DNA of 64,000 nt from a virus (lineage: Duplodnaviria > Caudoviricetes), in the IMG/VR virus record IMGVR_UViG_3300027804_000001, positions 192,001 to 256,000 of that record. One strand, given 5' to 3'. The position numbers and the translations under genes are program-made. Positions 24,744 through 60,811 of this stretch are shown piece after piece (position 1 is the first letter of the stretch; every line of letters starts with the position of its first letter). The notes beneath the pieces are model-generated. The model ran no database searches. It was not told the DNA's origin and was given only the letters and a program-made list of their open reading frames with translations.

Positions 24744-26195
24744 TTATTTCTTATTATAATTGTGTTTATCTGAAACATATTCACCTGGTTCAAAGTGTGT
24801 AATTCTACCATCAGTCATTTTAACATCAGGTATTGTATTATCAATTTCTAACGAATTATACCATTCAGCTAATTCGGGGAACGTTTCTACAAAATTTTTA
24901 TTTCTTCTTATATCATATTGCATATAGAAACTTTTGAAATCATGATACTGAAGGGAATTATCCATCTCAGTTGTATTATGACCTCTATTAACAACTTCTA
25001 TATAATCAATTAATCTTTGAATTTGTGCCTTTTCACCAACAGTAAAATATTCACTATTCTTATGTTTCATAAACCATAATGAAAGTTTACCATGTAAACC
25101 ATATTTTACATCATCAGGTAATACCAATGGTGACATAAACGCCGGCCATCTTAAAATGTTTAAATCAACTATTGGTCTGTGTGTACCGTATTTCTTTTTA
25201 AGTTCTAACATATCGTCTAAGAACTCAGTGATACTAAACAAACAAAGACTATTGATTGTCATCATAATAACAACCTGTCTAAAGTTTGCACTCTCTATAA
25301 ACTTAACTAAATTAGAATGCCATAATTTATAGTTTAATCCATCTCTAATATATTCGGCATGTGCACCATATGCCTCACAACTTGTATACAAATCAAATTC
25401 TTTAACCTGTACTTCGTGTGTGACATTAATGAGTCTTTCTAATGTTTTTTGATTTAAACCTAAATTAGAATTAATTGCTAATCTAAGATTTGGTGATGGG
25501 TATTGTTTCATCAAATCAATAAATTGCCAAAAGTTTCTACTTTGTGATGGTTCTCCACCAGTTACTCTGATTTCCATTAATTTTTCTGACAACTCCGGCC
25601 ACCATTCTAAGAATGCCTTTACATATGGGTTATCTTCATTGTATTTTCCAAAGATTTCAGACCAAGACCCATCTGCATAATATGCACCCGCACTTGTTGT
25701 TTTAAATTTCTGATATGGCCCATTATCTCTAATATCCTTACCCCAAGTTGTTGAATAACCCGAATTACAATATGAACAAGCAAAATTACACGTTCTGTCA
25801 AATGACACCTCAATCGTTTTTGGTGTTATATCTTCAGTCCAATGTATATCTTTCAATTTGGCAATGTCTTGTTCATCGTAAATTATACTTTTGTAAACCC
25901 TATCTGCAATGTTATTTCTACCAATATCCTCTACCTTCCAACAGTAAGAACATTCGGCGGGTTTAACACCATCCAACATCATTTTTCTAATTCTTTTCTT
26001 AAAATCTGTGTTGTGTAGTGCAGATGGGTTTGTTTTAATTGCTTCCGCATCAATTGGGTGTGGTAGTGGTAGATGACAAGAGTTTGTGAATCCGTGACCT
26101 AAATGTAGACTAACATTATACCATTTTGCAGCACAAAAACTACAACTGACTTTATTTAAATGTTCATCTCTCCAACTTGCTAATTCTTCTGACAT
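24744..26195 (-). CDS. Radical SAM protein with an N-terminal twitch/SPASM-like Cys cluster
   Basis: CNFACSYC (CxxxCxxC) and VTGGEP, plus N-terminal CSFC..KW..SCH..CSYCW. Confidence 0.9.
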   Translation of the reverse strand: MSEELASWRDEHLNKVSCSFCAAKWYNVSLHLGHGFTNSCHLPLPHPIDAEAIKTNPSALHNTDFKKRIRKMMLDGVKPAECSYCWKVEDIGRNNIADRVYKSIIYDEQDIAKLKDIHWTEDITPKTIEVSFDRTCNFACSYCNSGYSTTWGKDIRDNGPYQKFKTTSAGAYYADGSWSEIFGKYNEDNPYVKAFLEWWPELSEKLMEIRVTGGEPSQSRNFWQFIDLMKQYPSPNLRLAINSNLGLNQKTLERLINVTHEVQVKEFDLYTSCEAYGAHAEYIRDGLNYKLWHSNLVKFIESANFRQVVIMMTINSLCLFSITEFLDDMLELKKKYGTHRPIVDLNILRWPAFMSPLVLPDDVKYGLHGKLSLWFMKHKNSEYFTVGEKAQIQRLIDYIEVVNRGHNTTEMDNSLQYHDFKSFYMQYDIRRNKNFVETFPELAEWYNSLEIDNTIPDVKMTDGRITHFEPGEYVSDKHNYNKK

Positions 26196-26219
26196 ATTGT
26201 AAAATTTAATTTATTTTTT

Positions 26220-26960
26220 TTATAAAACAAAATCTTTAGGAACTCTTTCTAAAAAATTTGTATGTTTTGATTCGTCATATATGATACCTAAATTGTTCAC
26301 GGTCTTAAAATCGTAATAACAAAGTATATCATCATAACATTTTTTAAATGGTAGAACGTGTATTTCTGATTCTTTTAAGTAATCTTCAATTATTTCAATG
26401 TTTGAAGTTCTTAGTATAATTGAAAATAAAAATATATCCATTTCACAATAATATCGATGTCTGTCGGATGAACATTCCGGACTGGAACACCCAATAAACA
26501 AACTATTATCACAATAGTCAGAAATTAAATTACCGTTAAAAATTATTGTATTATTCTCTTTAAAATTTTTATATAACGCAAATTGATTATCTTTTCTTGC
26601 AACTGTAATTGTTACCCCATCTTCAATTTCTTTTTGTGTTGTATCTAACAATGGTAGAAAATAAAATTTATCTCCTTCTTCTTCATCGGTCCAAAATTCA
26701 AAAGCCATGGTTTGAGTTGTGTCGTTATAAGATAAACCTAAATTTTTACCCGGTTTACCAAAAACCATACTAATCTCATCTTTTTTATAATGTGGTTTTA
26801 TTTTGAAAGATAAAGTGATTGCATATTCACTTCTAAGTAAAAACTTAGTTAAATCACGATTTTCATACTTGTCATAATTTGTAACGTATTGATTATCGTG
26901 ATGTTCTTCAATTTCCCACTCAAACTTCGCCCAATAGGGTTCTTTATACTTTATTTTCAT
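26220..26960 (-). CDS. Stand-alone LamG/concanavalin-A-like domain protein
   Basis: Aligns by eye with the N-terminus of 26944..29052 (GxPGKNxGxSY, FEFWT, DY....FIGC, YYDF). Confidence 0.6.
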   Translation of the reverse strand: MKIKYKEPYWAKFEWEIEEHHDNQYVTNYDKYENRDLTKFLLRSEYAITLSFKIKPHYKKDEISMVFGKPGKNLGLSYNDTTQTMAFEFWTDEEEGDKFYFLPLLDTTQKEIEDGVTITVARKDNQFALYKNFKENNTIIFNGNLISDYCDNSLFIGCSSPECSSDRHRYYCEMDIFLFSIILRTSNIEIIEDYLKESEIHVLPFKKCYDDILCYYDFKTVNNLGIIYDESKHTNFLERVPKDFVL

Positions 26961-29052
26961 TTTTAATTTTTTTAAAAAATTCTTTTAATTCGGGGAAGTA
27001 ACTGTTTACATCCAAATCTCTTCTTTTTTTATACTCATCTGTAAAGTCTAATAAATCTTTTTTGTCTTTATCAAAATCTTTATAGTTTGTGTCATAATCA
27101 GCAACAAAGATGTCACGTATTCTCATAATTTTTTCAATCTCTTGAGTTGAAAACCCAACATCCTCTAACTTTTGTGTCTTATGAAAATTTAAACTTCTAA
27201 ATGTTGAGTTGAATTTCATATACTTTATCCATCTTTCAAATACATCAACACTTATGTAGTCTTTCAATAACCTAAAACTCATAAATGGTGGGTGTCTCAA
27301 ATAGGATGTATCCAAGATTAATGCAGTATTCCAATATCTCATGTTATTAAAGTGTCTCATTTTCATTTTGTGAACTTTTTTAATTAAAAGTTCATATGAA
27401 AACACACTAAAAATATTGAAGGTTGACATAATAACGATAGTAACTCTTGGTAATTTGGTTAATATCTTATCAATGTTCTGAAATAATTTTTCAAAACTCA
27501 TTCCGAATCTTGTGTATTCTGATTGTTTTCCATATGCATCACAAGAAGTAAAAATAACTAATTCGTGTACTCTATTATCTTTAATGATTAAATCCAACTT
27601 GTCAATTAGTTTGTCGATTAAATCATCAGTTACACCAAGATTACTATTAATCGATAACTTAAGATTTTTATTGGGGTTTTCGGTTTCAATTATGTAATCT
27701 AAAACTTTCCATGTGTCTTTGTGTAATAATGGTTCTCCGCCGGTTATTCTAAAGGTATCTAAGCTACCATATAATTCAGGAAACCATTCCCAAAACGCAT
27801 TTACATAAGGATTGTCCTCTGTTTGTTTGTATGGTCTTGTACCTCTTTCATCCATTCTTCTCGTACCATTATATTCATATGAAAGATTATATGCTCCGTG
27901 TTGATTAATTTCCTCCATCCATTTAGATGAATATTCGGGACCACAATAAGCACATTTAAAATTACATGTATTTGCAAAACTTATCTCGGCATATTTGGGG
28001 TTATAATCATCCCTCCAATTTGATTGACTAATTTCTTCAAAATATGGTTCAGACCACGGTTCGGATGATTTAAAAACTCTATCTGAATAAGAACTTGAAT
28101 TATCTTCAACATTCCAACAATATTGACACTCCGAAGGTCTTCTATCCTCAAGCATTTCTTTTCTTGCTTGTTTTTTGATTTTGCTATTATGTAAGGCGGA
28201 AGGGTTTCTTGAAATTTCCTCTAAACCAATTTTATGTGGCTCGGGGTGGTGACAACTATGTGTTGTACCATTATGTAGGTGCATAGTAACTTGTGTCCAT
28301 TTAGCCAAACAAAACCCACAACCAACATCATCTAATTTTTCTTTTACTATTTCAAAACCAACACTAGACATTTTATTTTTTCTTTTCAAAAATGTCTTTT
28401 CTTTATATTGTTCAATAATTAAAAATTCTTCGGTAGAATTTTCTAAATCAAAAAATGCGTATAGTTTGTTATAATCTTTAATATTAATAATCTCAATCTC
28501 TTTTTTTAGAACTGATTCTAATGTTTTTATATTAACAACCGACTGAAAAACACTAAAATGATTAACATCCATCTCAGTTATACACTTATGTGCGGATGTA
28601 ATACTATCCATGTTATGACAACCAATGTATATTGGTTCATTTTTATAGTCATCAATTAATGGATTAGAGTTTTCGATGGTATCAAACAATTTAAAATCTT
28701 TGTACAAATAATATGTTGTTCCGTCAAATTGTACTGTGACATTTATAAAGTTTTGAAATACTTTCGGATCTATATTATCATATAAAAAATAATTGAACTT
28801 ATCGTATAAATCTCCGTCTTCATTTTTTTCTTTCGTCCAAAATTCAAATACAAAATAATTGACTTTGTAATCATAACTAATACCAAAGTTTTTACCGGGT
28901 ATACCCATAAATCCAATCTTATCGTCCTGTTTATAATCTCTTGAAACTCTAAAAGTTGTTGAGATGGTAAATGGACCATCAGTAATGATATTGGTTTGTG
29001 CCTCTGTTGATTTTGGTTTTAAAAACCAAGGTTTTAAATATTCTATTCTCAT
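26944..29052 (-). CDS. LamG-like domain fused to a twitch-type radical SAM enzyme
   Basis: aa ~235-702 are paralogous to 24744..26195 (CGFCLAKW, SCHHP, CQYCW, CNFKCAYC, ITGGEP). aa 1-~230 are LamG-like. Confidence 0.85.
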   Translation of the reverse strand: MRIEYLKPWFLKPKSTEAQTNIITDGPFTISTTFRVSRDYKQDDKIGFMGIPGKNFGISYDYKVNYFVFEFWTKEKNEDGDLYDKFNYFLYDNIDPKVFQNFINVTVQFDGTTYYLYKDFKLFDTIENSNPLIDDYKNEPIYIGCHNMDSITSAHKCITEMDVNHFSVFQSVVNIKTLESVLKKEIEIINIKDYNKLYAFFDLENSTEEFLIIEQYKEKTFLKRKNKMSSVGFEIVKEKLDDVGCGFCLAKWTQVTMHLHNGTTHSCHHPEPHKIGLEEISRNPSALHNSKIKKQARKEMLEDRRPSECQYCWNVEDNSSSYSDRVFKSSEPWSEPYFEEISQSNWRDDYNPKYAEISFANTCNFKCAYCGPEYSSKWMEEINQHGAYNLSYEYNGTRRMDERGTRPYKQTEDNPYVNAFWEWFPELYGSLDTFRITGGEPLLHKDTWKVLDYIIETENPNKNLKLSINSNLGVTDDLIDKLIDKLDLIIKDNRVHELVIFTSCDAYGKQSEYTRFGMSFEKLFQNIDKILTKLPRVTIVIMSTFNIFSVFSYELLIKKVHKMKMRHFNNMRYWNTALILDTSYLRHPPFMSFRLLKDYISVDVFERWIKYMKFNSTFRSLNFHKTQKLEDVGFSTQEIEKIMRIRDIFVADYDTNYKDFDKDKKDLLDFTDEYKKRRDLDVNSYFPELKEFFKKIKNENKV

Positions 29053-30476
29053 TTCATTTTGGTATTTATGAACATTGTATTTGGATATAATGTTTCATCT
29101 ATGTTAACAATTTCAGTTACGTCTAAAATCTTATTAAATCCTTCCTCTCTATAATTTATTTTTTGTTGTTGCATTTCGGTAACGAATCTTTTTTCATTTC
29201 TTGCAGTTGTTTCACCTTTCGCCCATTGACCGTTTACATAACCTTCATCCAAATGATGCATACAATCAAACGCACCCTCTCTTCTATATGGTAATATGTT
29301 TTCAATAACATTAATATCTTCTTGAGTATATGTTACATCGCGACTATCACATCCTAAATCTTGTACTAATTCTATTTGACCTTTTGTAAACTCATAATGT
29401 AACTTTAAATTTTGATTCTCGTCTTCATCAAAAATTTTAGTTGCGTCATCAAAAAATTTATTATAAATTTTCACCTCTGAAATTTTACCTTTATAATAAA
29501 CATTTTGATGGTTACAAAATCCCAATAAAAATACTTTAAGAGCGTCGTGTCTTTTTAATTGTCCTTTAATTGGAAATGGTGCATTTACTTTAATACCATT
29601 CATGTTACTTATCAATTCGTTATTCACAAAAAGATACTGTTTTCTTGTTGTGGAATCATAGGAAATAGTAACCCAAGTCCATAAGTTTTCAAATCTTTTT
29701 GCCCAATTATAATAGTGTTGGGTATCCTCGTCAAAACAAACCATTGTAACTGCTCTAGAATTATTAAATGATAATCCCCACGTCCAACTACCATCTTTTC
29801 TAATTAAAGGATATTCAATAAACTTTCTGTCTTTATCTCCAACCAACCATATGGGATTCTTATCATGTTGTTGTTCCGCTTTAAACAAAACCGAAACCGT
29901 ATGATCACCAATTAAAGAACCACTAATTTCTCTGGTTGTTTCTGATGCAAAAACTGATGAAGAACCATTAAAATTTGCAACAATTCTATTTTTATATTTT
30001 TTATATATTCTACCAGTAGTGTAACCTTCATAATAACATCTCCAAAACAAATCATCATCTTCTTGACCCCAATCCCAATAATCATTTGAATAACCATTGG
30101 TTTTTTCTACTTGTTCTTTGTTGAACAACACTACTCCACCAAAGTATTGGTCATAACCCAATCCGTAACTATATTTTGATAACATAGTTGCTATATGTAT
30201 TGGATTTTTGGTTGGATAGGAATAATCACAGGTATCGTCGTGAGGTATCATGTCCACATCGTGCCAAGCAATATAATCACATCCATCTTCAAATGCGTAA
30301 TGTGCTGCAATATTTTTCATTGATCCTCTATTAAAAAGTTTTTCATCTACTTGGTGACCAACATAGAACTTATGTGGAATACCCTGTTTATTTAAATGAT
30401 TTGTTAACTCGGGTATTAATTTTTCAATGTGTTCTTTTCTATTTCTGTATGGTATACAAATTCCTAATTTTTTCAT
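29049..30476 (-). CDS. GT7 (beta-1,4-galactosyltransferase-like) enzyme with an inserted LamG domain
   Basis: IPYRNR, FNRG, WHDVD, YFGGV and NGYSNDYWDWGQEDDD, then a ~210-aa LamG-like insert, then RREGAFDCMHH. Confidence 0.85.
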   Translation of the reverse strand: MKKLGICIPYRNRKEHIEKLIPELTNHLNKQGIPHKFYVGHQVDEKLFNRGSMKNIAAHYAFEDGCDYIAWHDVDMIPHDDTCDYSYPTKNPIHIATMLSKYSYGLGYDQYFGGVVLFNKEQVEKTNGYSNDYWDWGQEDDDLFWRCYYEGYTTGRIYKKYKNRIVANFNGSSSVFASETTREISGSLIGDHTVSVLFKAEQQHDKNPIWLVGDKDRKFIEYPLIRKDGSWTWGLSFNNSRAVTMVCFDEDTQHYYNWAKRFENLWTWVTISYDSTTRKQYLFVNNELISNMNGIKVNAPFPIKGQLKRHDALKVFLLGFCNHQNVYYKGKISEVKIYNKFFDDATKIFDEDENQNLKLHYEFTKGQIELVQDLGCDSRDVTYTQEDINVIENILPYRREGAFDCMHHLDEGYVNGQWAKGETTARNEKRFVTEMQQQKINYREEGFNKILDVTEIVNIDETLYPNTMFINTKMK

Positions 30477-31894
30477 ATTCCAACAATTACGTGGGTTACA
30501 TTTTTATTTTTTACGTGAGAGTGTTCTATAAATTGACAATTGTTTAAACCGTCGTCTTTATAACTAACATTCCCTTTTTTTACTTCATTATAAAATCTTA
30601 ATTGATTGTATCTTGTTAATTTAGTTTTCCAACCATTTAACACATAACCATTTTCTTCGTGTGGAATTAATTGAAATGTTGAATTTCTTCTATATGGGAC
30701 ATCAATTTCTTTTGTTTCTTCATGTGAATAACCAACTATTTCACAATTATAAATTTGACCGTTATTTCCATTACCACTTAAATCCATTAATTTATAACCC
30801 TTAATAAATTTTGCATCGTAATTTAAAATCAATTTATGGTCAGAAACATAGTTACCAAAGTTTTGTGTTAAACCAAAATATTGATTATTTGAAATTTCTC
30901 TTATTTCGTCATCGGAAAGAATATCAGAATACACAGCAAAATTACTAATTGTACCCTTAAAGAATTTTTGGTCATTATTTCTATTTGGGTTTGAACACCC
31001 TAAATAAAATTTATTTTCTTTAGTTATATAATCTCTCAGTCTTTTAATTTTTTTATAGTCAACTACTAATCCATCTTGATAGAGTCTTATCTCTTTTTCG
31101 TATGTGTCAATTGTTATTGCAATGTTTGTTTTGTAATTTGTAACAATATTAGATTCTAAATGAATGATATCATTATTTTCATCGAAAATTTGAAATACAT
31201 ATCTTGAATATGAACTATAACCAATTAAAAAATCATAACCAGGTACACCAAAACAAGCATACATATCGTCATCTCTTTCATGATTCATTTCTATTTCATC
31301 GGGAAAGAAACTAATGAAAATTGTATTTTTATACTTGAAATCAAAAATGTTATTTGACTCTACATAAGAATTTACGCCATTGAATTTAAGGGTAGCAACA
31401 TTCCCACCTTTTTGTTGTATTTCCTTTGTGTTTAAGGGTATTTTCTCTTGTTGACATCTGAATAATAATTCAGTGTCTTCATATCCCCAACCCCAATATT
31501 TGTTTGAATACCCATTAACTTGTTCAAAATATTCAACAGGAAATAAAGTTACCCCACCAAAATATTCATCAAAAACGATTCTTTTGAATTTATATGTGGT
31601 AAGTAATTCTGTTGCCATATGTAAAGGAATGTCATAATAGGAATAGTCGACATCTATCGGTAACATATCAACGTCGTGAAAAACAACATAATCACACCTT
31701 AATTTTTTGGCGTATATGAATCCTATATTTAATAGTTTACCTCTATTAAACGCATTTCCGTTATCTTGTTCAACAACGATTAATTCATATTTAATGTTTT
31801 TATCAGATAGATAGTTTTTTAAATGTGTCTTAAACTGAATTAATTGTGGATATCTGTTTCGATATGGTACAATGATTCCAAGTTTATGAGACAT
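30473..31894 (-). CDS. GT7 (beta-1,4-galactosyltransferase-like) enzyme with an inserted LamG domain
   Basis: VPYRNR, FNRGKLLNIG, FHDVD, YFGGV and NGYSNKYWGWGYED, then a LamG insert (FKGTISNFAVYSDILS), then RRNSTFQLIPH. Confidence 0.88.
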   Translation of the reverse strand: MSHKLGIIVPYRNRYPQLIQFKTHLKNYLSDKNIKYELIVVEQDNGNAFNRGKLLNIGFIYAKKLRCDYVVFHDVDMLPIDVDYSYYDIPLHMATELLTTYKFKRIVFDEYFGGVTLFPVEYFEQVNGYSNKYWGWGYEDTELLFRCQQEKIPLNTKEIQQKGGNVATLKFNGVNSYVESNNIFDFKYKNTIFISFFPDEIEMNHERDDDMYACFGVPGYDFLIGYSSYSRYVFQIFDENNDIIHLESNIVTNYKTNIAITIDTYEKEIRLYQDGLVVDYKKIKRLRDYITKENKFYLGCSNPNRNNDQKFFKGTISNFAVYSDILSDDEIREISNNQYFGLTQNFGNYVSDHKLILNYDAKFIKGYKLMDLSGNGNNGQIYNCEIVGYSHEETKEIDVPYRRNSTFQLIPHEENGYVLNGWKTKLTRYNQLRFYNEVKKGNVSYKDDGLNNCQFIEHSHVKNKNVTHVIVGI

Positions 31895-32148
31895 TATTTT
31901 CTACCTGTTTTTTTTGGTGCCGGAACATCTTCTTGGTTCTCGTCACTACCTTTTACGATTTTGTTGTGGAATTCGGCTAAATAATACTGAACACGATTGC
32001 TCCACTCATCTTTGTCGATTTCTTCGAACCAAACAGTTAATGCATCTAAAGAATTTGCAATTTTTTCTAATGCCTTTGTTTTTCTTTGTTCAAGAATCAG
32101 TAATTCTTCTTCAAATTGTTTGTTTGGTTTTTTTGTTGAGTCTGTCAT
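31894..32148 (-). CDS. Hypothetical protein (84 aa, helical)
   Basis: Tiles between its neighbours with 1-4 nt overlaps. Confidence 0.65.
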   Translation of the reverse strand: MTDSTKKPNKQFEEELLILEQRKTKALEKIANSLDALTVWFEEIDKDEWSNRVQYYLAEFHNKIVKGSDENQEDVPAPKKTGRK

Positions 32149-32996
32149 ATTGATTTTATTTTATTTATTAATTTATTCCAGTTAGAATACTCTTTATAAT
32201 CACCTAATATACAATTTTTTTCGAACATAAACAAGAAATTATCGAGATTAATTTTGAATCTACTTTTTCTTAATGAATTGTACATTATTCTATACTCATC
32301 AGAGAACGAATAATCTTGATTATTATCTGCAACGGACTTAATTCTTTCTATGGAAGTTGAATCCCACTTAAAATGATGTACTTGAACCTGAAAATTTGGG
32401 TTTATGAGTGGGTGTGACCATCCTTGCCATCTCCATGTTGTTTGTCCTTCTATTTTGGCATAGTGTTGTCCGGAAGTAATTTCAATATACCCCTTTACAA
32501 TACATATTTTATTAGGATTTGCTTGACTTAACGGGTATCTGAAAAACCCCGCGTTTGGATATTGTTCAAAAATTAATTGATTTTCTTTTAACTCCACAAA
32601 TTCACCATCAGGTCCTATTCTATCAATAAAACCACCCCTAACAATTTCATATCCTTTATCATTACAGTCGTCTATGATACCAATTAAGTCATTATTAGGG
32701 TATAAATGGAATTCGTCGATATCGGCAATTACCCACCAATCGTTTGGATGTTTTGATTTTATAAAATTATATAGTTGTGTTACTTTCTCCCAATCAAAAA
32801 TCCTGTCTTTTATTGTTCTAACAATAGAAACATTATCGTAATCTTTAATTTGTTCCTCAACTTTTGATTTTAAATCTGGTGAGATTTGAGATTCATAAAC
32901 AATTATGTTAATCTCATCAACATATTGTTTATAATGTTGTACGAAATGAGGAATTAAGTTGTGTCCGTGACCTATAACAGTTACTAATCTAATCAT
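32145..32996 (-). CDS. GT2-like / GT92-like glycosyltransferase
   Basis: HFVQHY, WWVIADIDEFH (DxD), GGFIDR and QVHHFKW motifs. Confidence 0.7.
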   Translation of the reverse strand: MIRLVTVIGHGHNLIPHFVQHYKQYVDEINIIVYESQISPDLKSKVEEQIKDYDNVSIVRTIKDRIFDWEKVTQLYNFIKSKHPNDWWVIADIDEFHLYPNNDLIGIIDDCNDKGYEIVRGGFIDRIGPDGEFVELKENQLIFEQYPNAGFFRYPLSQANPNKICIVKGYIEITSGQHYAKIEGQTTWRWQGWSHPLINPNFQVQVHHFKWDSTSIERIKSVADNNQDYSFSDEYRIMYNSLRKSRFKINLDNFLFMFEKNCILGDYKEYSNWNKLINKIKSI

Positions 32997-33739
32997 TTTC
33001 TTCTATTAACCACCGTAATACCGCTTGATGACGGCTTTGTGTTTAATATACGAAAATTAAATAAATTAATCAAATTCCACTCAGTATTTTCTTGTAATTC
33101 TTTGATGAATTTTGATGGTCCGTCAAATCTATCGTGAGTTTCTTTTGTATCTTCCGAAATAATAAATGTCTCCTCATAATCATCATCTGTATCGTGTATA
33201 ATGATTATACCATTATCAGATAATAATTTGGAATATAATTCAAAATCTTTTTTAACTCCTTCATATGAATGGTCACCATCAATAAAAAGAACATCTATTT
33301 TAATATTTTGTCTAACAAAGAAATTATAATATGCTTCTTCGGATGTAGATTTAATAAATCGTGGATGGAAATGTTTTCTAAAAAAAGATTTTTTATCATC
33401 TAAATCATTTGGACCTCCAACACCATTACATGCATCAACCAAATATGTTGCACCTATCTCACCCCAATTTAAATCGGGGTTTCCTTCAAATATACTTTGA
33501 GTATGTAAATCCATTCTCGCTTGTGACATTATTCTTGGAATATAACCACCACCCGATCCAATACATACACAAACTTTTGCTCTCATATGTTGAATGATTG
33601 AGTAGACTATAAGTCCATCTCCCATATGTTCTTTAGTTGCTCCGTGTGTCCACAAATAAGGAACCAATACACCATCATTTGATGTTATGTTATTTTCAAT
33701 GTAATCCTGATTTAATAAGTTTTTATTATTCATAAACAA
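32993..33739 (-). CDS. Class I SAM-dependent methyltransferase (Methyltransf_24-like)
   Basis: VCIGSGGG and IDVLFIDGDHSYEGVKKDF...GIIIIHDT motifs. Confidence 0.88.
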   Translation of the reverse strand: MFMNNKNLLNQDYIENNITSNDGVLVPYLWTHGATKEHMGDGLIVYSIIQHMRAKVCVCIGSGGGYIPRIMSQARMDLHTQSIFEGNPDLNWGEIGATYLVDACNGVGGPNDLDDKKSFFRKHFHPRFIKSTSEEAYYNFFVRQNIKIDVLFIDGDHSYEGVKKDFELYSKLLSDNGIIIIHDTDDDYEETFIISEDTKETHDRFDGPSKFIKELQENTEWNLINLFNFRILNTKPSSSGITVVNRRK

Positions 33740-35850: not shown

Positions 35851-36609
35851 CTATAAACCAAATCTTTTTTTTGTGTTATTATAATTTTGTAAAACTTGAG
35901 TTGAGGTTAAAGCTGTGGAATGTACCATAAGTTGAGCCAATGTACCGTTAAAAACCGAACCATAACTATCCGTACCCACCCCATAACTATCAGAATTACA
36001 CGGTCCCCACATTGTACATATAGCACAAACGGGTCCAGTTGTGTTTGTTATTGTTTTAGTTGCATCAAGTGAACCATTTATATACATTTTCATTGAGGTG
36101 GTTGATTCTTTAACCCACACTAAATTTTTCCAACCTCCTGTATTCACCAATGTTGTTCCTAAATATGTTTGCCACGCACCGTCATAATTCCAATATTCCA
36201 TATATCCATTAACAAGTGTATATGCAATGTTTACCGGACCACCACTACAGTGAGATAAGATACCAACCCTTCCTGTAGTGGTAAATTTACACCATATAGA
36301 TACAGTACAAGTATTTCCCAAATTAAAAGAAGAAAATTTACCCCAGTCATTAGTACCATCGAATACAAATTCGTTATTTTTTCGATTTTTATTATGTGTT
36401 GGGGGGCCGGAAGTAGTTGTAGAATATGTACCACCACCAGAATTATATAAGGTTACGTCTCTTCCGTTTCCACTTAAATCTTTCCATGTTGACCCCGACC
36501 CTGAATATGAGAAACCTCTATCGGAGTCTAAAAATAATTCAATATTTGTTAATACTAAATTATTTAAGTTTTTAATTGAATCAGATTTATTATATGGTCC
36601 TACGTACAT
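35851..36609 (-). CDS. LamG/ConA-like lectin-domain virion protein
   Basis: LD..G.SYSGSG.TWKDLSGNG, FDGTND, W..LVWV, MYING and C-terminal NYNNTKKRFGL. Confidence 0.8.
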   Translation of the reverse strand: MYVGPYNKSDSIKNLNNLVLTNIELFLDSDRGFSYSGSGSTWKDLSGNGRDVTLYNSGGGTYSTTTSGPPTHNKNRKNNEFVFDGTNDWGKFSSFNLGNTCTVSIWCKFTTTGRVGILSHCSGGPVNIAYTLVNGYMEYWNYDGAWQTYLGTTLVNTGGWKNLVWVKESTTSMKMYINGSLDATKTITNTTGPVCAICTMWGPCNSDSYGVGTDSYGSVFNGTLAQLMVHSTALTSTQVLQNYNNTKKRFGL

Positions 36610-36612
36610 GTT

Positions 36613-37305
36613 TTATAAATTAAATCTTTTTTTTGTTGCATTATAATTATTCAAAATTTCGGCGTCTGTCAATGACCTATTATACACTCTAAAAACATAT
36701 AATTTTCCCGACCAACCACTGGCAATTGTTGCTGCGGTTGTTAAATTCCATGTTGATGTTGCAGTTGAGTTTGCACCTGAGCTGACCTGTTCCACCGTAT
36801 TTTTAAACATTTGTCTATATGGTGTGGTATTTGTCCTTACCCTATAAGAAAAATGTCTAATCCCCGCAGTTAAATCAGAATCATTTGCATATTGTATTCT
36901 TTGGGTTACGTTACAACAACCATTAACGTCAAAATAAGTGTTACCATTACTATAGTATAAATGACTAAAAATTGCTCTTGTATCTGAACCAAGACTTGAG
37001 GTTGCTCTCCAATCAAAAAATGTATTCGTTGTTGCAGACGTTGTTTGAACATATGCTTCAATATAACATTCACTTGTAGATGAAAAACCGAACGTGTTAG
37101 AGGCGGGTCCTGTAAAAACACCACCACTACAATCAAAATAACCCGCAGAGTTCCAAGAAATATTTGCACCAAAACTGTAATTCCTATTACCAGTACTTAA
37201 ATCATACCATGTACTCCCTGAACCTGGATATGATCTATTTACACCCGCATCTAAATGTAAAACTAAACCATTTGTTACTATATTAGGTCCACCGTATGCT
37301 CCCAT
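36613..37305 (-). CDS. LamG/ConA-like lectin-domain virion protein
   Basis: GPNIVTNGLVLHLDAG..SYPGSGSTWYDLS and YNRSLTDAEILNNYNATKKRFNL. Confidence 0.8.
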   Translation of the reverse strand: MGAYGGPNIVTNGLVLHLDAGVNRSYPGSGSTWYDLSTGNRNYSFGANISWNSAGYFDCSGGVFTGPASNTFGFSSTSECYIEAYVQTTSATTNTFFDWRATSSLGSDTRAIFSHLYYSNGNTYFDVNGCCNVTQRIQYANDSDLTAGIRHFSYRVRTNTTPYRQMFKNTVEQVSSGANSTATSTWNLTTAATIASGWSGKLYVFRVYNRSLTDAEILNNYNATKKRFNL

Positions 37306-37307
37306 GT

Positions 37308-38009
37308 TTATAAATTAAATCTTTTTTTTGTTGCATTAAAAATTTCACCTACTTGTGTTGATGTTAATGCTCTGTTATACATTAAAACTTTCCCAACTTT
37401 ACCATTTACATAGTACGCATTGATTCCAATATCACCACCGATAGACAAAGCACCTGTGTTATAATAATTTCCACCAGATGGTGTTGTGGTTGCAGTCTCA
37501 TCATAATTGTTTCTTATAATTGTTTGTGTATTATCCGTTCTATTTAAAATTGCAGTAAACATTGCCCACGTATTAAAAGTGTAACCGATAAAACCTGTAT
37601 CTGTTCTACTACTTGCATCGTTACCTATCATAAATCTAACACCACTTGGATTGTTAGCACCAATATAATAACCATTAGAACCACCCGACCTTTTTGCAAT
37701 CCATAAATCCCAACCATCTCCAGCAATTGAAGGGTCTGAATTTACCCAACATATTATTGTAAACGACCCACTATTTGGATTTATAGTTGAACTATTTGTA
37801 ATTGAAATATAATCATCTACACCATCAAATGAAAAAACACCACCATTAGAATTATTAAAGGTTGCACCGTTTGTTAATGTCCCGTTATTACCATTTTTAG
37901 ATATATCATAAACATTATTTCCACTACCGATATAGGATCTATATGACCCAGCATCAATAGATAATACTAATCCGTTTCTTGTAAAATTAGGCCCTCTAAA
38001 AATTCCCAT
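37308..38009 (-). CDS. LamG/ConA-like lectin-domain virion protein
   Basis: GLVLSIDAG, FSFDGVDDYI and YNRALTSTQVGEIFNATKKRFNL. Confidence 0.82.
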   Translation of the reverse strand: MGIFRGPNFTRNGLVLSIDAGSYRSYIGSGNNVYDISKNGNNGTLTNGATFNNSNGGVFSFDGVDDYISITNSSTINPNSGSFTIICWVNSDPSIAGDGWDLWIAKRSGGSNGYYIGANNPSGVRFMIGNDASSRTDTGFIGYTFNTWAMFTAILNRTDNTQTIIRNNYDETATTTPSGGNYYNTGALSIGGDIGINAYYVNGKVGKVLMYNRALTSTQVGEIFNATKKRFNL

Positions 38010-39958
38010 TATTTAATTTTTTGCTCTAACGCCTCGATACGTTTTAATAACTCTTTATTTGTTTCAATTAGTAACGCAACTAATTTTTCATATTTAACAG
38101 CTTTAAATCCATTATTTCTTGTTGTTACAATTTCGGGTAAAACTTTCTCTATTTCTTGAGCAACAACACCAATATCGTGTCCTTCATTTTCATGTATTCC
38201 TTTCATTGGTACCCAATCAAATTCATAACCACTTATTTCGTTTAATTTATCCAATGAACCTTTAATTGGTCTTATATTTGTTTTTAATCTTTCATCAGAA
38301 CCATAATATGCAATTACATCATTTGTGGCTCTTATTAAACCAACAGTTGTTGGTGTTTCGGTTCCAACTCCAAGTGCACCCGAAACATATAGATTTCCGT
38401 CGACATCAACTCTCGCAGATGCGCTTACAGATAAAATTGGTGCACCTGAAATATCACCAACACTAAAAACTGTTCCAAGTAAATCGTCTGTAACCGAAAA
38501 TAATTGACCTTGTGAACCTTGTATATCTACAACAACTGAACCCGATTTATAAATTTCTAATGAACCTGAAATAGACATTACTGTTCCTGTAAATCTTGCA
38601 TTTGATTCAACTGTTACATTTGGTGATGTACTGTTTAATGTTAATAAACCATCATTAAGTGTTCCTGATAATGTTACCGTACCACTACTACCCGATGAAC
38701 CACTACTACCGCTTGAACCCGATGTTCCTGAACTTCCACTACTTCCTGATGTACCACTACTACCAGAACTTCCTGAGGATCCACTTAAACCTGAAGAACC
38801 CGAAGAACCTGATGTTCCACTACTTCCTGATGTACCAGAAGTTCCTGAAGAACCCGATGTACCTGAAGTACCCGAACTACCTGAAGATCCCGAAGAACCT
38901 GAGGTTCCACTAGTTCCTGAAGTACCAGAACTTCCACTAGTTCCACTACTACCACTTGAACCTGAACTACCTGATGATCCACTTGTACCTGAAGTACCCG
39001 AAGAACCATTACTACCACTACTACCACTTGTACCAGAAGAACCTGAGCTTCCTGATGTTCCACTACTTCCACTTGTACCTGAAGTACCACTAGAACCTGA
39101 TGTTCCACTTGTACCATTTATACCTGACGTACCACTTGAACCACTACTACCGTTACTTCCTGATGTTCCACTTGTTCCTGAACTTCCACTAGTACCTGAA
39201 GTACCTCTAGTTCCTGAACTACCAGATGTTCCTGAGGAACCACTTGAACCTGATGTACCGCTAGAACCTGATGTACCAGAACTTCCGCTTGAGCCAGAAG
39301 AACCAGATGTTCCTGAAGAACCTGAAGTACCAGAACTTCCTGATGTTCCGCTGGTACCAGATGAACCATTACTACCACTTGTTCCACTTGTACCAGATGA
39401 ACCATTACTACCACTTGTACCAGATGAACCATTACTACCACTTGTACCAGATGTTCCTGAACTTCCAGAAGAACCTGATGTTCCCGAACTACCACTACTT
39501 CCACTTGTACCTGAAGTACCACTAGTTCCTGAAGTACCTCTAGTTCCTGAACTACCAGATGTTCCTGATGAACCTGAACTACCAGATGTTCCTGATGAAC
39601 CAGAACTTCCTGAAGAACCTGATGTTCCCGATGTTCCACTACTACCACTAGTACCTGAACTTCCAGAAGAACCTGATGTACCACTAGTACCTGAAGTACC
39701 CGATGTCGCAGCCGCAAAAGTGGTACCATTTAACACTAAACTACCAGTAACTCTTAATGAACCTGTGAAATCATGACTATCATCACTTGAATTACCAAAC
39801 TTTGTTGAACCACTGCTAAATGATGCGGTTTGATATATTACCGAAGATGAAATTATGTATTGTTGTGCGACGAGATTACCCTGTATATTTAAATCTCCTG
39901 AGATGTCCGCCGAGCCTGATACAATCAGACCATTTTTGACTTTAAATTCGTTTGCCAT
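38009..39958 (-). CDS. Tail-fibre-like protein with a ~340-aa Gly-(S/T)-S repeat and a C-terminal Peptidase S74 autocleaving chaperone
   Basis: YYGSDERLKTNI...GVVAQE...YEKLVALLIE..KEL (S74 domain). The triplet repeat is visible directly. Confidence 0.88.
   Translation of the reverse strand: MANEFKVKNGLIVSGSADISGDLNIQGNLVAQQYIISSSVIYQTASFSSGSTKFGNSSDDSHDFTGSLRVTGSLVLNGTTFAAATSGTSGTSGTSGSSGSSGTSGSSGTSGTSGSSGSSGSSGTSGSSGSSGTSGSSGTRGTSGTSGTSGTSGSSGSSGTSGSSGSSGTSGTSGSNGSSGTSGSNGSSGTSGTSGSNGSSGTSGTSGSSGTSGSSGTSGSSGSSGSSGTSGSSGTSGSSGSSGTSGSSGTRGTSGTSGSSGTSGTSGSNGSSGSSGTSGINGTSGTSGSSGTSGTSGSSGTSGSSGSSGTSGSSGSNGSSGTSGTSGSSGSSGSSGSSGTSGSSGTSGTSGTSGSSGSSGSSGTSGTSGSSGTSGTSGSSGTSGSSGSSGLSGSSGSSGSSGTSGSSGSSGTSGSSGSSGSSGSSGTVTLSGTLNDGLLTLNSTSPNVTVESNARFTGTVMSISGSLEIYKSGSVVVDIQGSQGQLFSVTDDLLGTVFSVGDISGAPILSVSASARVDVDGNLYVSGALGVGTETPTTVGLIRATNDVIAYYGSDERLKTNIRPIKGSLDKLNEISGYEFDWVPMKGIHENEGHDIGVVAQEIEKVLPEIVTTRNNGFKAVKYEKLVALLIETNKELLKRIEALEQKIK
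38681..39711 (-). repeat. Gly-X-Y coding repeat (GTS/GSS), synonymously diverged
   Basis: About 110 consecutive triplets with no Pro. Codon choice varies, so this is not an exact DNA tandem repeat. Confidence 0.95.
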
Positions 39959-40005
39959 TTATTCAAATTAGTTTCATTATCCACTAATGGTGTTTATGTG
40001 TTTAC

Positions 40006-40013
40006 TATAAATA
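40006..40013 (-). promoter_or_regulatory. Putative late-promoter motif (sense TATTTATA)
   Basis: 48 nt upstream of the 39958 start, just downstream of a terminator. Confidence 0.55.
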
Positions 40014-40034
40014 CTAAATCAAAGATTATAAAAT

Positions 40035-40059
40035 AAAAAAGGGGAGAATAAATCTCCCC
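40035..40059 (-). terminator. Intrinsic terminator
   Basis: Minus strand GGGGAGA-TTTAT-TCTCCCC followed by T6, downstream of the 40082 stop. Confidence 0.85.
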
Positions 40060-40081
40060 TTTCATCTAATTTATTTTTATC

Positions 40082-43000
40082 TTATATTGACAACGCTCTT
40101 GCGAACATAACTACACTCCATGTTCCTGATGATGATGTTGCCGTAACCGTTCCACTATTGGAAATTGTAAACGATATTGCTGATGTGTTACCTAAGTCAG
40201 TAGTTGTGGTTTCTGTTAATTTAGATGTTGAACCATCCCATATACCTACAATACTACCTGCTCTCATATTAGAACCATTTTTCACTAAGTAATCAAGAAC
40301 TACACCATTGTAACTTGATAATGTAAACATTGTTGATGATGTACTTACAGATTGATTACTTGTTTGAACATCTACTTTACCATTCATCAAGATATCACCT
40401 GTTAATGATAATGTTGATCCACTAAATGTTAAATTGGTTTCAACCGTTGCATTTGTTCCACTACCATCATATGTTATAACACCATTGTTTGTTGAACCTG
40501 TTAATGTTACAAGTCCTGATGTACCTGATGTACCTGCTGTACCACTTGAACCGCTTGTTCCTGAAGAACCACTTGAACCGCTTGAACCTGAAGTACCAGA
40601 TGTTCCACTTGTACCAGATGAACCCGAAGTACCTGATGTTCCAGAACTTCCTGATGTTCCACTACTTCCTGAAGAACCACTTGTACCAGCAGTTCCTGAT
40701 GAACCTGAACTTCCTGATGTTCCACTACTTCCACTAGTACCTGAACTACCCGATGTTCCTGATGTTCCAGAACTTCCTGAAGAACCAGATGAACCTGATG
40801 AACCTGAGCTACCTGATGAACCAGAAGTTCCCGAAGTACCTGATGAACCAGAAGAACCTGAACTACCACTTGTTCCTGAACTACCAGAAGAACCTGAGCT
40901 TCCTGATGTTCCACTACTTCCACTTGTTCCTGAACTACCACTTGTACCGGCTGTTCCTGAAGAACCACTTGTACCAGCCGTTCCTGAACTACCTGAAGTA
41001 CCTGAGGTTCCACTTGTTCCTGATGAACCAGATGAACCCGATGTACCAGAACTTCCTGATGAACCAGATGTACCCGATGAACCACTTGTACCAGCGGTTC
41101 CTGATGAACCACTTGAACCAGATGTACCCGAAGTACCTGATGAACCACCACCACCTTCACCGAGTGTAACCGCAACTAAACCTGCTTGTGGTGATGAAAA
41201 TCCTATTTCAATATTATATAAGTCAATCGCTTCAATTGTCTGTGGTATAATTGAAAAACCATTTGTATCATAAACTTGTACAACAGGATATTTTGCACCT
41301 AAATCGTGTTGGAATGACCATGTTGTTGAAGGTGAGTTAACGGTTAATGAATTATATGCTCCCACAGTTGTACTACCTGAGCTACCGCTTGTTCCTGAAG
41401 AACCCGATGTACCAGATGTACCTGCAGTACCACTACTTCCTGAAGAACCACTAGAACCTGAAGTTCCACTTGTTCCACTACTTCCTGAACTACCACTAGA
41501 ACCTGAAGTACCTGATGTACCTGAGGTACCACTACTTCCCGAACTACCACTAGAACCTGATGTTCCTGAGGACCCTGAAGTACCAGATGTTCCACTTGTT
41601 CCTGAAGAACCAGATGAACCTGATGTACCACTAGAACCTGATGTACCACTTGAACCAGATGTACCCGAAGTACCTGATGTTCCACTTGTACCATCTGCAC
41701 CTGTAGCACCATCTAAGTTAATTGACCAAGATGAATACGTACCACTACCGATTGTTCCATTTGCATCAGGTGCAGAGAATGTTAATGTTGTACCACTATA
41801 ACTTACTACGTCTGATTCTTGATAATTGTTTACATTATAAGCAATGATGATTGATTGTCCAACTGAGTAACTTAATCCCGTAGGAACTGTAACTGAACCA
41901 CCTTGTCCTAATGTATGTGTTGAATTCGATGTTGTTTTATAAACTTCTGAAGTACCTGAAGTACCTGATGTACCAGCTGTTCCTGAAGAACCACTTGTAC
42001 CCGAAGAACCCGAAGAACCTGATGTTCCAGAAGTTCCTGAACTTCCTGATGAACCACTAGAACCTGATGTTCCTGATGTACCAGATGAACCAGAACTTCC
42101 TGAACTACCACTTGTACCTGAAGTACCCGCAGTTCCAGAACTTCCTGATGAACCACTAGAACCCGAAGTACCACTACTTCCACTTGTTCCTGAACTTCCA
42201 GATGAACCCGAACTTCCACTCGTTCCTGAAGAACCAGATGTACCACTTGTACCGGCAGTTCCACTACTTCCTGAAGAACCTGAACTTCCGCTTGTTCCTG
42301 AAGAACCGGATGTACCTGAACTTCCTGAAGAACCACTAGAACCTGATGTTCCACTTGTTCCACTACTTCCTGAACTACCACTAGAACCACTTGTACCGGC
42401 TGTTCCTGAAGAACCACTTGTACCAGATGTTCCACTACTTCCCGATGTTCCCGCAGTTCCTGAACTACCTGAAGTTCCAGATGTACCAGAAGAACCTGAT
42501 GAACCCGATGTACCCGCAGTTCCAGAACTTCCTGAAGAACCACTAGAACCTGATGTACCAGATGTTCCTGATGAACCACTTGTTCCTGAAGATCCACTTG
42601 AACCTGATGTACCAGATGTACCCGCAGTTCCACTACTACCACTACTTCCACTTGAACCTGAAGTACCAGATGTTCCTGATGAACCACTAGAACCACTTGA
42701 ACCTGAAGTACCACTTGTACCAGATGTACCTGAAGTACCATCAGCACCCGTAGCACCATCTAAGTTAATAACCCAATTAGAATATGTACCGCTACCAATT
42801 GTACCGTTAGCATCTGGAGTATCAACTGTTATTGTTGTTCCACTATATGAAACCACATGAGACTCTTGATAATTGTTGACATCATACGCTATGATAATAG
42901 ACTGACCAACAGTGTAACTTAATCCACTTGGTACAGTAAATGACCCCGAATTACCTAATGTATGTGTGGTTGTTGATATTGTTTTATAAACTTCCGAAGT

Positions 43001-45166: not shown

Positions 45167-45200
45167 TTCTTCTTCTTTGTTTTTATTACACTAAGTCTTT

Positions 45201-45208
45201 TATAAATA
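45201..45208 (-). promoter_or_regulatory. Putative late-promoter motif (sense TATTTATA, followed by AAAGACTT)
   Basis: 35 nt upstream of the 45166 start. Confidence 0.55.
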
Positions 45209-45253
45209 TTTCATTATTCGATTAGTTTATTACTTTTGATAAAAAACTTTTTA

Positions 45254-60546: not shown

Positions 60547-60811
60547 TTCTAGAAACTATTTTTTTTATTATTGGTTGTTCGGTAGGTGTTGGTGTTGTTG
60601 TAATTTCTTCTTCTGACGGAATGATAGTTTCGTTATTGTCTAAATCATAGATAACATGATTGGGATTTATATCGTCTGATTCCCAATATAATTCATCAGG
60701 TGTTAATGTTGGGGTTGGTACCGCCAAATCTAAGGATGGAAAATCTTCCGTGTCTAAGGGGTTGTTTTCCAACACCTCTAAGGGGTCTTCCTCCGTTAGG
60801 AATTTTTTTTT
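60512..60811 (-). other. -1 frame extension (~97 aa) of 60796..62052, reachable by a frameshift on an A10 run
   Basis: The -1 frame opens with TGA-AAA-AAA-AAA-TTC immediately at the run (60803-60812) and the zero frame closes 2 codons after it. Both sides have the same acidic Pro/Thr-rich composition. Confidence 0.65.

Follow-up and report, generated by a model that had tools for sequence, protein, structure and literature searches.

The closest known enzymes to the gene pair described here are the animal beta-1,4-galactosyltransferases 1 and 7 (CAZy GT7; PDB 1TVY, 1NF5, 2AE7, 4IRQ, 3LW6). A type II membrane anchor, a stem and a contiguous catalytic domain are typical of animal GT7 enzymes, rather than criteria of the CAZy family; in comparison, the phage pair lacks the anchor and stem and its catalytic domain is interrupted. 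Within the window, a 64,000-nucleotide stretch of viral DNA, the pair consists of GT7b (P0002, 473 aa; 30473..31894), which encodes a glycosyltransferase of GT7 type in which a LamG domain is nested, and GT7a (P0001, 475 aa; 29049..30476), a paralog with the same nested design. Both open reading frames are present as an earlier, sequence-only reading had described them, on the minus strand, to which all coordinates below refer. Relative to beta4GalT1, the phage LamG domain (230-244 residues) breaks the catalytic domain at about residue 330-335. We know of no domain nested inside a GT7 catalytic fold, and our literature search, directed at this architecture and its phage context, turned up no description of one. 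The source of the pair is an uncultured freshwater giant phage.

GT7a and GT7b are full-length paralogs (29% identity over the full length, E = 2e-44), and the GT7b stop overlaps the GT7a start by 4 bases. By sequence, GT-A fold and motifs, both belong to the GT7 / beta4-galactosyltransferase type. Pfam Glyco_transf_7N matches GT7a at 65 bits and GT7b at 73.7 bits (gathering cut-off 27 bits), beginning at model position 47, the first ~46 positions being absent from both proteins, and Glyco_transf_7C matches them at 69.3 and 61.5 bits, respectively (cut-off 23 bits). Among solved structures, beta4GalT7 and beta4GalT1 are the nearest to them (E = 3e-32 to 1e-28), with residues 3-151 of GT7a matching the beta4GalT7 PDB sequence at E = 3e-32. 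The N-terminal catalytic segment (aa 1-151 in each; 31442..31894 in GT7b, 30024..30476 in GT7a) carries the motifs FNR (residues 49-51 in GT7b, 48-50 in GT7a), DVD (74-76 and 73-75), YFGGV (111-115 in both) and WGWGYED or WDWGQED (134-140 in GT7b and GT7a, respectively). The DVD sequence, a D-x-D metal/nucleotide-sugar motif, is invariant in alignments A1 and A4, as are, in alignment A1, D74 and D76 of GT7b and residues W136, G137, E139 and D140 of the W-G-x-E-D catalytic loop. The corresponding sites in beta4GalT1 are D252-V-D254 (D-x-D) and W314, E317 and D318 (W-G-x-E-D-D loop). After the insert, the C-terminal catalytic segment of GT7b (aa 396-473; 30476..30709) contains a PYRR motif, His412 (in IPH, 410-412), the lid loop and a DGLN strand, and that of GT7a (aa 393-475; 29052..29300) contains PYRR, M406-H407-H408 (MHH, 406-408) and the lid. 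H412 of GT7b is invariant in alignment A1, and the post-insert His is at least 95% conserved across 68 GT7a and 63 GT7b orthologs; DVD, the E-D of W-G-x-E-D and this His are thus all invariant or at least 95% conserved. Neither protein contains a hydrophobic segment, i.e. both are without a membrane anchor. A complex prediction for GT7a with GT7b scored 0.00, below the mark, and is uninformative either way.

Because a profile built from just the last 80 residues gave only chance-level matches against PDB sequences (E = 0.13), the link between the lid and that of beta4GalT is drawn from insert-less relatives and from structural alignment. Insert-less forms of ~220 aa occur in uncultured phages and bacteria (alignment A5) and match beta4GalT1 along their whole length (E = 7e-64); their C-terminal motif order is the same as that of GT7b, in a segment that aligns to beta4GalT1 331-398, and M406-H407-H408 of GT7a and H412 of GT7b fall in a motif that, in the insert-less forms, aligns to beta4GalT1 340-347. 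The metal-hinge His of the pair corresponds to beta4GalT1 position 344 or 347, either assignment fitting; the hinge of the long flexible loop is M344/H347 in beta4GalT1 and H-x-H in beta4GalT7. The insert-less proteins, which are 29-38% identical to P0002 (alignment A3), share with the pair a shortened N-terminus and an R-K/R-x3-F-x3-H motif, but differ in having a contiguous catalytic domain and no LamG. A MAFFT alignment of the long and short forms put the short C-termini inside the insert and was not used for boundaries.

The sequence-only reading had about 210 aa of LamG-like sequence interrupting the canonical motif order; the interruption stands, but the insert proves longer, at about 230-244 residues (152/164 to 392/395), with ~80 residues of enzyme remaining after it. 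In GT7b it comprises a linker strand and a LamG beta-sandwich (aa 152-395; 30710..31441), and in GT7a a two-strand stalk and a LamG domain (aa 152-392; 29301..30023). Structure prediction, the check proposed for a discontinuous GT-A fold, produced two high-confidence models (pLDDT 90.8 and 90.6, pTM 0.85 and 0.87) that, together with structural alignments, bore out both this fold and the anticipated beta-sandwich. In both paralogs the GT-A fold, including the C-terminal lid segment, superposes on beta4GalT1/7, and the insert, a two-sheet jelly-roll superposable on LamG or pentraxin domains, sits after the W-G-x-E-D helix and before the His loop. The closest structure to the insert is 4dqa, a putative carbohydrate-binding protein. 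LamG enters ~10 residues before the metal-binding His, the hinge of the active-site lid, and two-domain chains modelled at pTM 0.85-0.87 suggest that it packs in a fixed way on the catalytic domain. Loop 411-430 of GT7b has low pLDDT (60-74 after His412), as expected in such a model for a mobile lid.

Pfam Laminin_G_3 matches GT7b at 40.4 bits and GT7a at 23.1 bits, above and below the 27.6-bit gathering cut-off, respectively. By BLASTP, the insert matches the neighbouring LamG proteins weakly (best E = 8e-4), and a clear signal is obtained only by profile comparison, in which hhalign relates the GT7b insert to the GT7a insert (E = 1e-23), to the free LamG246 (E = 1e-15) and to the N-domain of the radical SAM enzyme (E = 1.5e-12). 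The insert is the least conserved part of the enzymes, with a mean top-residue frequency of 0.54-0.55 versus 0.70-0.80 in the N-terminal core. The GT7b LamG has only 7 positions that are at least 95% conserved, and so shows no obvious conserved site for binding; in the GT7a LamG, a number of polar and aromatic positions are kept, with H192, E221, R226, N238-R241, K260 and W266 making up the conserved face. From the reuse of the same subtype on the neighbouring radical SAM enzyme, it is reasonable to infer that LamG may be a substrate-targeting or glycan-binding module.

Uncultured aquatic phages that form a large family carry the nested design as a rule; it is found in more than 2,250 metagenome clusters at 90% identity and at no fewer than 485 loci in IMG/VR. 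Neither enzyme has a match among 50,697 deposited phage genomes (tblastn, megablast), and neither matches a PHROG family or NCBIfam. The view that GT7 is chiefly eukaryotic, from which the sequence-only reading had started, is to be corrected, since P0001 matches 4,810 metagenome clusters at 50% identity, many of them ~220-aa insert-less forms, and GT7-like proteins are not rare outside eukaryotes. Its companion statement, that the motifs are normally contiguous, holds for the insert-less relatives and for beta4GalT1. In a tree of the N-terminal core, one clade of all LamG-bearing forms was not rejected (p-AU 0.37), with the truncated ORFs P0221 and P0222 and the tandem double-GT7 P0132 relabelled after the tree had been seen; counting these three as insert-less led to rejection of the single clade, and from these sequences a single origin of LamG-bearing forms is not demonstrated.

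Comparison of 80 related viral loci places the pair, in 77 of them, in a cassette of fixed order: methyltransferase, GT2, small protein, GT7b, GT7a and radical SAM. Both paralogs are present in 77/80 loci, the GT7b and GT7a frames overlap by 4 bases in 64/80, and a radical SAM gene follows GT7a in 72/80. Just upstream of GT7b lies a conserved cassette member encoding a helical protein of 84 aa (31894..32148) that falls in no known family, has no match in Pfam or PHROG and for which tblastn finds a match at the same position in 72 of the 80 loci, with a median identity of 71%. Farther upstream (32145..33739) are a GT2-like glycosyltransferase (283 aa) and a methyltransferase (248 aa), assigned by Pfam and syntenic in most of the 80 loci. 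Downstream members (24744..29052; Pfam, NCBIfam) include a twitch radical SAM enzyme with an N-terminal LamG (702 aa), a free LamG protein (246 aa) and a second radical SAM enzyme (483 aa), and NCBIfam NF033640 matches within this radical SAM group at 306 bits. Across loci, the radical SAM enzyme exists in a ~700-aa form that carries LamG and a ~465-aa form that does not, the free and radical-SAM-fused LamG copies come and go between genomes, and the same LamG subtype recurs on several cassette enzymes.

The cassette is placed just downstream of Ser/Thr/Gly-rich structural genes, an ORF of this composition of at least 200 aa being found upstream in 45/57 loci and downstream in 0/73. In the source phage, the candidate acceptors encoded there (35851..47482; Pfam Laminin_G_3, Collagen, Peptidase_S74) are three free LamG_3 proteins and three collagen-like Gly-Ser/Thr-Ser fibres, and a free LamG protein matches PHROG 'virion structural protein'. 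The free LamG proteins occupy 35851..38009, and fibre fragments lie at 38009..39958. The suggestion that the pair glycosylates G-X-S repeats processively fares less well: nothing was found in support of processivity, and the link to the repeats is not specific, as only 34/80 related loci have a collagen-like ORF within 10 kb and 3/8 large related genomes carry the pair without a Pfam Collagen match, two of the three having estimated completeness of 93% and 100%. The acceptor therefore cannot be that repeat in general. The surrounding 36-kb island encodes nucleotide-sugar enzymes, six sugar enzymes in it matching NCBIfam models only far below cut-off, with no sugar named. It encodes no multi-pass membrane protein and no flippase, polymerase or polyprenyl-phosphate transferase, nor did a DNA-base hydroxymethylase or a transport gene turn up in it.

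We propose, giving the idea about an even chance of being right, that the GT7 pair extends a glycan stepwise on a phage structural protein and that LamG is the acceptor-recognition module. GT7a and GT7b would be soluble, probably metal-dependent, inverting sugar-nucleotide transferases, most likely using a UDP-hexose donor and probably translated as a coupled unit from the conserved phage cassette; a soluble system is proposed because the island encodes no multi-pass membrane protein and neither enzyme has a hydrophobic segment. Successive sugars would most likely be added to a glycan growing on a phage structural protein in the infected cell, candidate acceptors in the source phage being the Ser/Thr-rich fibres or LamG-type virion proteins encoded just upstream. 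The nested LamG would most likely hold a protein or glycan substrate beside the catalytic cleft; the hhalign matches, the radical SAM enzyme with or without LamG and the conserved GT7a LamG residues point to LamG as a common accessory module. To our knowledge, characterised GT7 enzymes transfer to sugar acceptors, not protein, so that a separate initiating enzyme would be needed, of which none was identified in our analysis. The intact active-site motifs, the conserved cassette, its place after Ser/Thr/Gly-rich genes and the nucleotide-sugar enzymes of the island favour the proposal; the genomes that carry the pair but no collagen repeat, the low conservation of the LamG insert and the published reading of similar pelagimyophage islands as modifying the host O-chain (PMC7029224) count against it. 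By a bolder and doubtful analogy, the nested LamG might play in cis the part that alpha-lactalbumin or a RiPP recognition element plays, redirecting a sugar-to-sugar GT7 onto phage structural proteins, and the cassette might build a beta-linked glycan on fibre Ser/Thr that stabilises proline-free Gly-Ser/Thr-Ser triple helices in phages like the source. The triple helix of Riftia cuticle collagen is stabilised by galactosylated threonine.

Zaragoza-Solas et al. read the glycosyltransferases of the pelagimyophage tail-fibre 'host recognition cluster' as remodelling host surface glycans (PMC7029224). By the same logic, the pair and its cassette might remodel a host surface glycan (O-antigen, capsule or S-layer) during infection, e.g. 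blocking superinfection, with LamG binding a host glycan intermediate. Sugar acceptors are usual for GT7 enzymes, and the often carbohydrate-binding nature of LamG-type folds, together with the resemblance to 4dqa, would also suit this explanation. We consider it unlikely, given that neither a multi-pass membrane protein of any kind nor a flippase, polymerase or polyprenyl-phosphate transferase is encoded in the island, that the cassette keeps its place immediately downstream of the structural genes, and that the island has its own nucleotide-sugar pathways, as do the known virion-glycosylating viruses (mimivirus, mycobacteriophages).

A phage product might also be glycosylated with LamG serving only as a structural add-on, either controlling the lid, as an in-cis alpha-lactalbumin counterpart, or assembling the cassette enzymes into a complex. 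Insertion ~10 residues ahead of the lid hinge, the rigid packing suggested by high pTM, the weak sequence conservation, especially in GT7b, and the presence of one subtype on several cassette enzymes are consistent with such a role, which we nevertheless judge rather improbable: the conserved polar and aromatic set in the GT7a LamG is more typical of a ligand site, and the variability of free and radical-SAM-fused copies between genomes would be expected of a recognition module more than of a fixed scaffold. The neighbours of the pair include twitch radical SAM enzymes, DegT aminotransferases and a carbamoyltransferase, which recall aminoglycoside clusters, and DNA-glycosylating phage glycosyltransferases are known (cited in PMC12619734). 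A further reading, in which the product of the island is a sugar-bearing small molecule (aminoglycoside- or nucleoside-like) or else a hypermodified DNA base, and the GT7 pair glycosylates this product instead of protein, is very improbable in view of the fixed position of the cassette beside fibre genes, the occurrence of same-superfamily LamG domains as virion structural proteins in the source phage, and an island with no visible DNA-base hydroxymethylase or transport gene.

If LamG recognises the acceptor, as in the stepwise glycosylation of a phage structural protein that we favour, the pair would be a natural case of a sugar-specific transferase retargeted by domain insertion, and would offer a handle on phage virion glycosylation, so far documented mainly in mycobacteriophages and giant viruses. 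It would also provide compact soluble GT7 enzymes for glyco-engineering and help in choosing between virion coating and host-surface remodelling for the glycan islands that neighbour fibre genes in large aquatic phages.

The source island resembles the host recognition cluster of pelagimyophages and cyanomyophages, a large, variable region within the structural region of large aquatic phages that contains tail fibres, glycosyltransferases, radical SAM cassettes, concanavalin-like domains and collagen repeats (PMC7029224). There, GT8 is named as the main family and host O-chain modification is proposed, and, unlike the source island, the cluster is described without GT7-type enzymes or a nested LamG (PMC7029224). 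At the level of the enzymes, GT27 polypeptide GalNAc-transferases offer a functional analogy only: both they and the pair combine a GT-A domain with a lectin-type domain, but GT27 is another family with a retaining mechanism, and its lectin is of another fold and appended rather than nested. The C-terminal ricin-type lectin domain of GT27 enzymes steers glycosylation of Ser/Thr-rich repeats. GtfA, from the glycosylation of streptococcal serine-rich-repeat adhesins, and OGT with its intervening domain are likewise functional analogs only, in which a beta-rich domain is inserted in a glycosyltransferase fold; they differ from the pair in having a GT-B fold and an insert whose fold is unrelated to LamG. 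In both GtfA and OGT, the inserted beta-rich domain contributes to recognition of Ser-rich protein acceptors.

GT7b (P0002, 473 aa; 30473-31894, minus strand) and GT7a (P0001, 475 aa; 29049-30476, minus strand) are encoded by consecutive ORFs in which the GT7b stop and the GT7a start overlap by 4 bases and the GT7a stop likewise runs into the start of the following gene, in a window that is AT-rich (about 29% GC) and carries nearly all of its genes on a single strand. Identity between the two proteins is 29% from end to end (E 2e-44). In both, residues 2-160 match Pfam Glyco_transf_7N and Glyco_transf_7C well over the gathering scores, and Laminin_G_3 follows at about 190-341, scoring 40.4 bits in GT7b (over the cut-off) and 23.1 bits in GT7a (under it). 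The only solved relatives found by sequence, beta4GalT7 and beta4GalT1, align with no more than residues 3-156 (E 3e-32 to 1e-28). Insert-less relatives of about 220 aa (P0199, P0256 and others) give a profile whose alignment with beta4GalT1 runs end to end (E 7e-64, profile 3-221). In these forms R-K/R-x3-F-x3-H comes no more than about 20 residues after the W-G-x-E-D-D helix, and a loop separates it from D-G-L-N. The equivalent of R-K/R-x3-F-x3-H is PYRR…H412 in GT7b, where it lies C-terminal of LamG, and PYRR…M406-H407-H408 in GT7a. Because the motif is contiguous in the insert-less forms and follows LamG in GT7b, the alignments place the insertion point near beta4GalT1 residue 330-335, roughly ten residues ahead of Met344/His347, on which the long flexible loop hinges (bovine numbering, checked against the profile alignment). 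The Pfam domains and the short relatives thus bear out the sequence-only reading that LamG interrupts the GT7 catalytic order ahead of the His motif.

Ortholog alignments show DVD, W136, G137, E139, D140 and the His to be invariant or at least 95% conserved. In the GT7b model, confidence is lowest in the loop after His412 (pLDDT 60-74), as expected for a mobile lid, and in the GT7a model two long strands (153-170 and 382-398) connect LamG to the core. Both the conservation and the models are consistent with a functional GT7 active site, and the two enzymes thus look catalytically competent. The YFGG Tyr corresponds to beta4GalT1 Tyr289, from which we infer by analogy that a hexose donor may be favoured over HexNAc.

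The inserted module has several relatives nearby. By profile comparison, the GT7b insert is closest to a free 246-aa LamG protein (E 1e-15) and to the N-domain of a 702-aa radical SAM enzyme (E 1.5e-12), and these two are of near-identical type (E 1e-46). Both GT7 inserts match the free LamG_3 proteins adjacent to the fibres (E about 1e-9), which the radical SAM N-domain did not match in the same comparison. Among the loci compared, the radical SAM enzyme carries LamG in about 15 (~700 aa) and is without it in about 47 (~465 aa). Thus a single LamG subtype is nested, fused or free across different enzymes of one pathway, a pattern comparable, by analogy, to that of the substrate-recognition elements of peptide-modification pathways. 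The frequency of the top residue is 0.54-0.55 in the insert versus 0.70-0.80 in the catalytic core, showing that the insert evolves faster; 23 positions of the GT7a insert, many of them polar or aromatic, are nevertheless at least 95% conserved. Residues 353-383 of GT7b (window about 30746-30838) resemble residues 12-47 of the protein encoded at 37308-38009 (BLASTP E 0.009), and the shared motif, L-x-L-x-Y-D … D-L-S-G-N-G-N-N-G, is carried by the last strands of the GT7b insert and stands at the start of the free LamG_3 proteins. The hhalign comparison pairs the start of the insert with residue ~57 of free LamG_3. Relative to these free proteins, the nested LamG may be circularly permuted.

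At least 485 loci were confirmed in IMG/VR, and the cassette counts cover the best 80. Both paralogs occur in 77 of the 80 (two full-length copies in 66 loci, three in 7, one in 7), the four-base frame overlap in 64, and a twitch-type radical SAM gene (NF033640, 306 bits) after GT7a in 72; most loci also have a GT2-like gene and a methyltransferase gene ahead of the pair. Across the downstream segment of the window (24744-29052, minus strand) and loci L001-L080, the radical SAM enzyme encoded after GT7a has one of three lengths: about 465 aa, about 700 aa where an N-terminal LamG is present, or 857-940 aa. From a reading of the gene lists, uncounted, the free 246-aa LamG occurs only in loci with a large form (about 700 aa or longer). 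Directly upstream of GT7b lies a gene for an 84-aa helical protein (31894-32148, minus strand), found in this position in 72/80 loci. The protein has no Pfam or PHROG match, and its median identity is 71% over the aligned ~50-70 residues, versus 50-60% typical of full-length GT7b orthologs. It is a core member of the cassette and may serve the GT7 enzymes as a partner or a specifier.

Within the window, genes for three collagen-like Gly-Ser/Thr-Ser fibres and for three free LamG_3 proteins are found 6-16 kb upstream of the pair, and the sequence-only reading had given the G-X-S repeats as an example of a possible target. This tie is not specific: only 34/80 loci have a collagen-like ORF 10 kb or less from the pair, and 3/8 large related records, including ones estimated to be 100% and 93% complete, are without any Pfam Collagen match. 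These three (G003, G006 and G007, the records of L037, L036 and L074) encode a GT7-LamG pair or triplet, and in them the cassette comes after LamG-type or other Ser/Thr-rich structural genes; in L036 and L037 these are several LamG-type Ser/Thr-rich proteins in succession. Ser/Thr/Gly-rich ORFs of at least 200 aa were found upstream in 45/57 loci and downstream in 0/73, some loci being near-duplicates. Together with the collagen-less genomes, these ORFs tie the cassette to the fibre/structural region rather than to the G-X-S repeat itself.

In the sugar island (window 1-36000), which encodes nucleotide-sugar enzymes, every ORF has at most one hydrophobic segment; the island accordingly encodes no flippase, polymerase or polyprenyl-phosphate transferase. 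The sole multi-pass membrane protein of the window is at 60796-62052. With nucleotide-sugar enzymes present and no multi-pass membrane protein in the island, a cytoplasmic protein target fits better than polysaccharide export. We propose, at about even odds, that the two GT7-type transferases are soluble and work one after the other, lengthening a glycan carried by a virion protein, the nested LamG beside the lid hinge serving as a built-in acceptor-recognition module. LamG could instead be a lid regulator or an assembly domain and no targeting module, which we consider rather improbable. Remodelling of host surface glycans, the published reading of similar islands (PMC7029224), is unlikely here, if somewhat less so, and a small-molecule or DNA target is very unlikely.

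Beyond these loci, the design is common: the full GT7-LamG architecture was found in 2,252 clusters at 90% identity, and at the 50% level P0001 has matches in 4,810 clusters, among them many full-length forms of 450-500 aa, the ~220-aa insert-less forms and other fusions. Neither enzyme has a match in 50,697 deposited phage genomes or a family in PHROG or NCBIfam. A pattern scan of one genome from each of 185,579 prokaryotic species gave at least one full-length match, the single one among the matches listed, on a 23-kb contig (L081, VHCC01000006.1) binned with a Pelagibacterales MAG. This contig, which carries the 84-aa gene too, is probably a phage contig binned there through its low GC; read otherwise, it is a weak clue to the host. 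In metagenomic proteins, GT7-like domains also occur in tandem, as double-GT7 proteins, or fused to GT2, methyltransferase, GT47 (exostosin) or RXYLT1_C domains (P0132, P0147, P0148; P0181, P0185, P0217, P0248, P0269). In P0240 (576 aa, metagenomic, high GC), a contiguous GT7-like domain precedes a peptide-recognition domain of the PqqD type, and about 250 more residues at the C-terminus match nothing in Pfam; this arrangement hints that bacterial GT7-like enzymes also take part in peptide glycosylation. The gene for insert-less P0256 lies, on L094 and L095, two to three small genes from that for ribosomal protein S21, a reported core gene of pelagimyophages (PMC7029224), so the short forms may be phage-encoded too. 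A tree built from the N-terminal core places the LamG-bearing forms in a GT7a-like and a GT7b-like group, and only once labels had been corrected post hoc was a single clade uniting these forms not rejected (p-AU 0.37). That the insertion point is shared and that the two inserts are homologous (hhalign E 1e-23) suggests that insertion preceded duplication.

Our literature search found no description of the GT7-LamG architecture, and a recent paper on large aquatic phages names just 'putative glycosyltransferases' in the core gene set (PMC12619734). New here are the presence of the pair in near-complete genomes without collagen-like fibres and the place of the 84-aa protein in the core of the cassette. 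In every sequence and fold feature examined, GT7a and GT7b conform to GT7. The parallel with lectin-assisted GT27 enzymes, and with the domains inserted in GtfA and OGT, is one of functional analogy only. The two phage enzymes differ from all characterised GT7 members in being phage-encoded, in having neither anchor nor stem, and in carrying a LamG domain nested within them.
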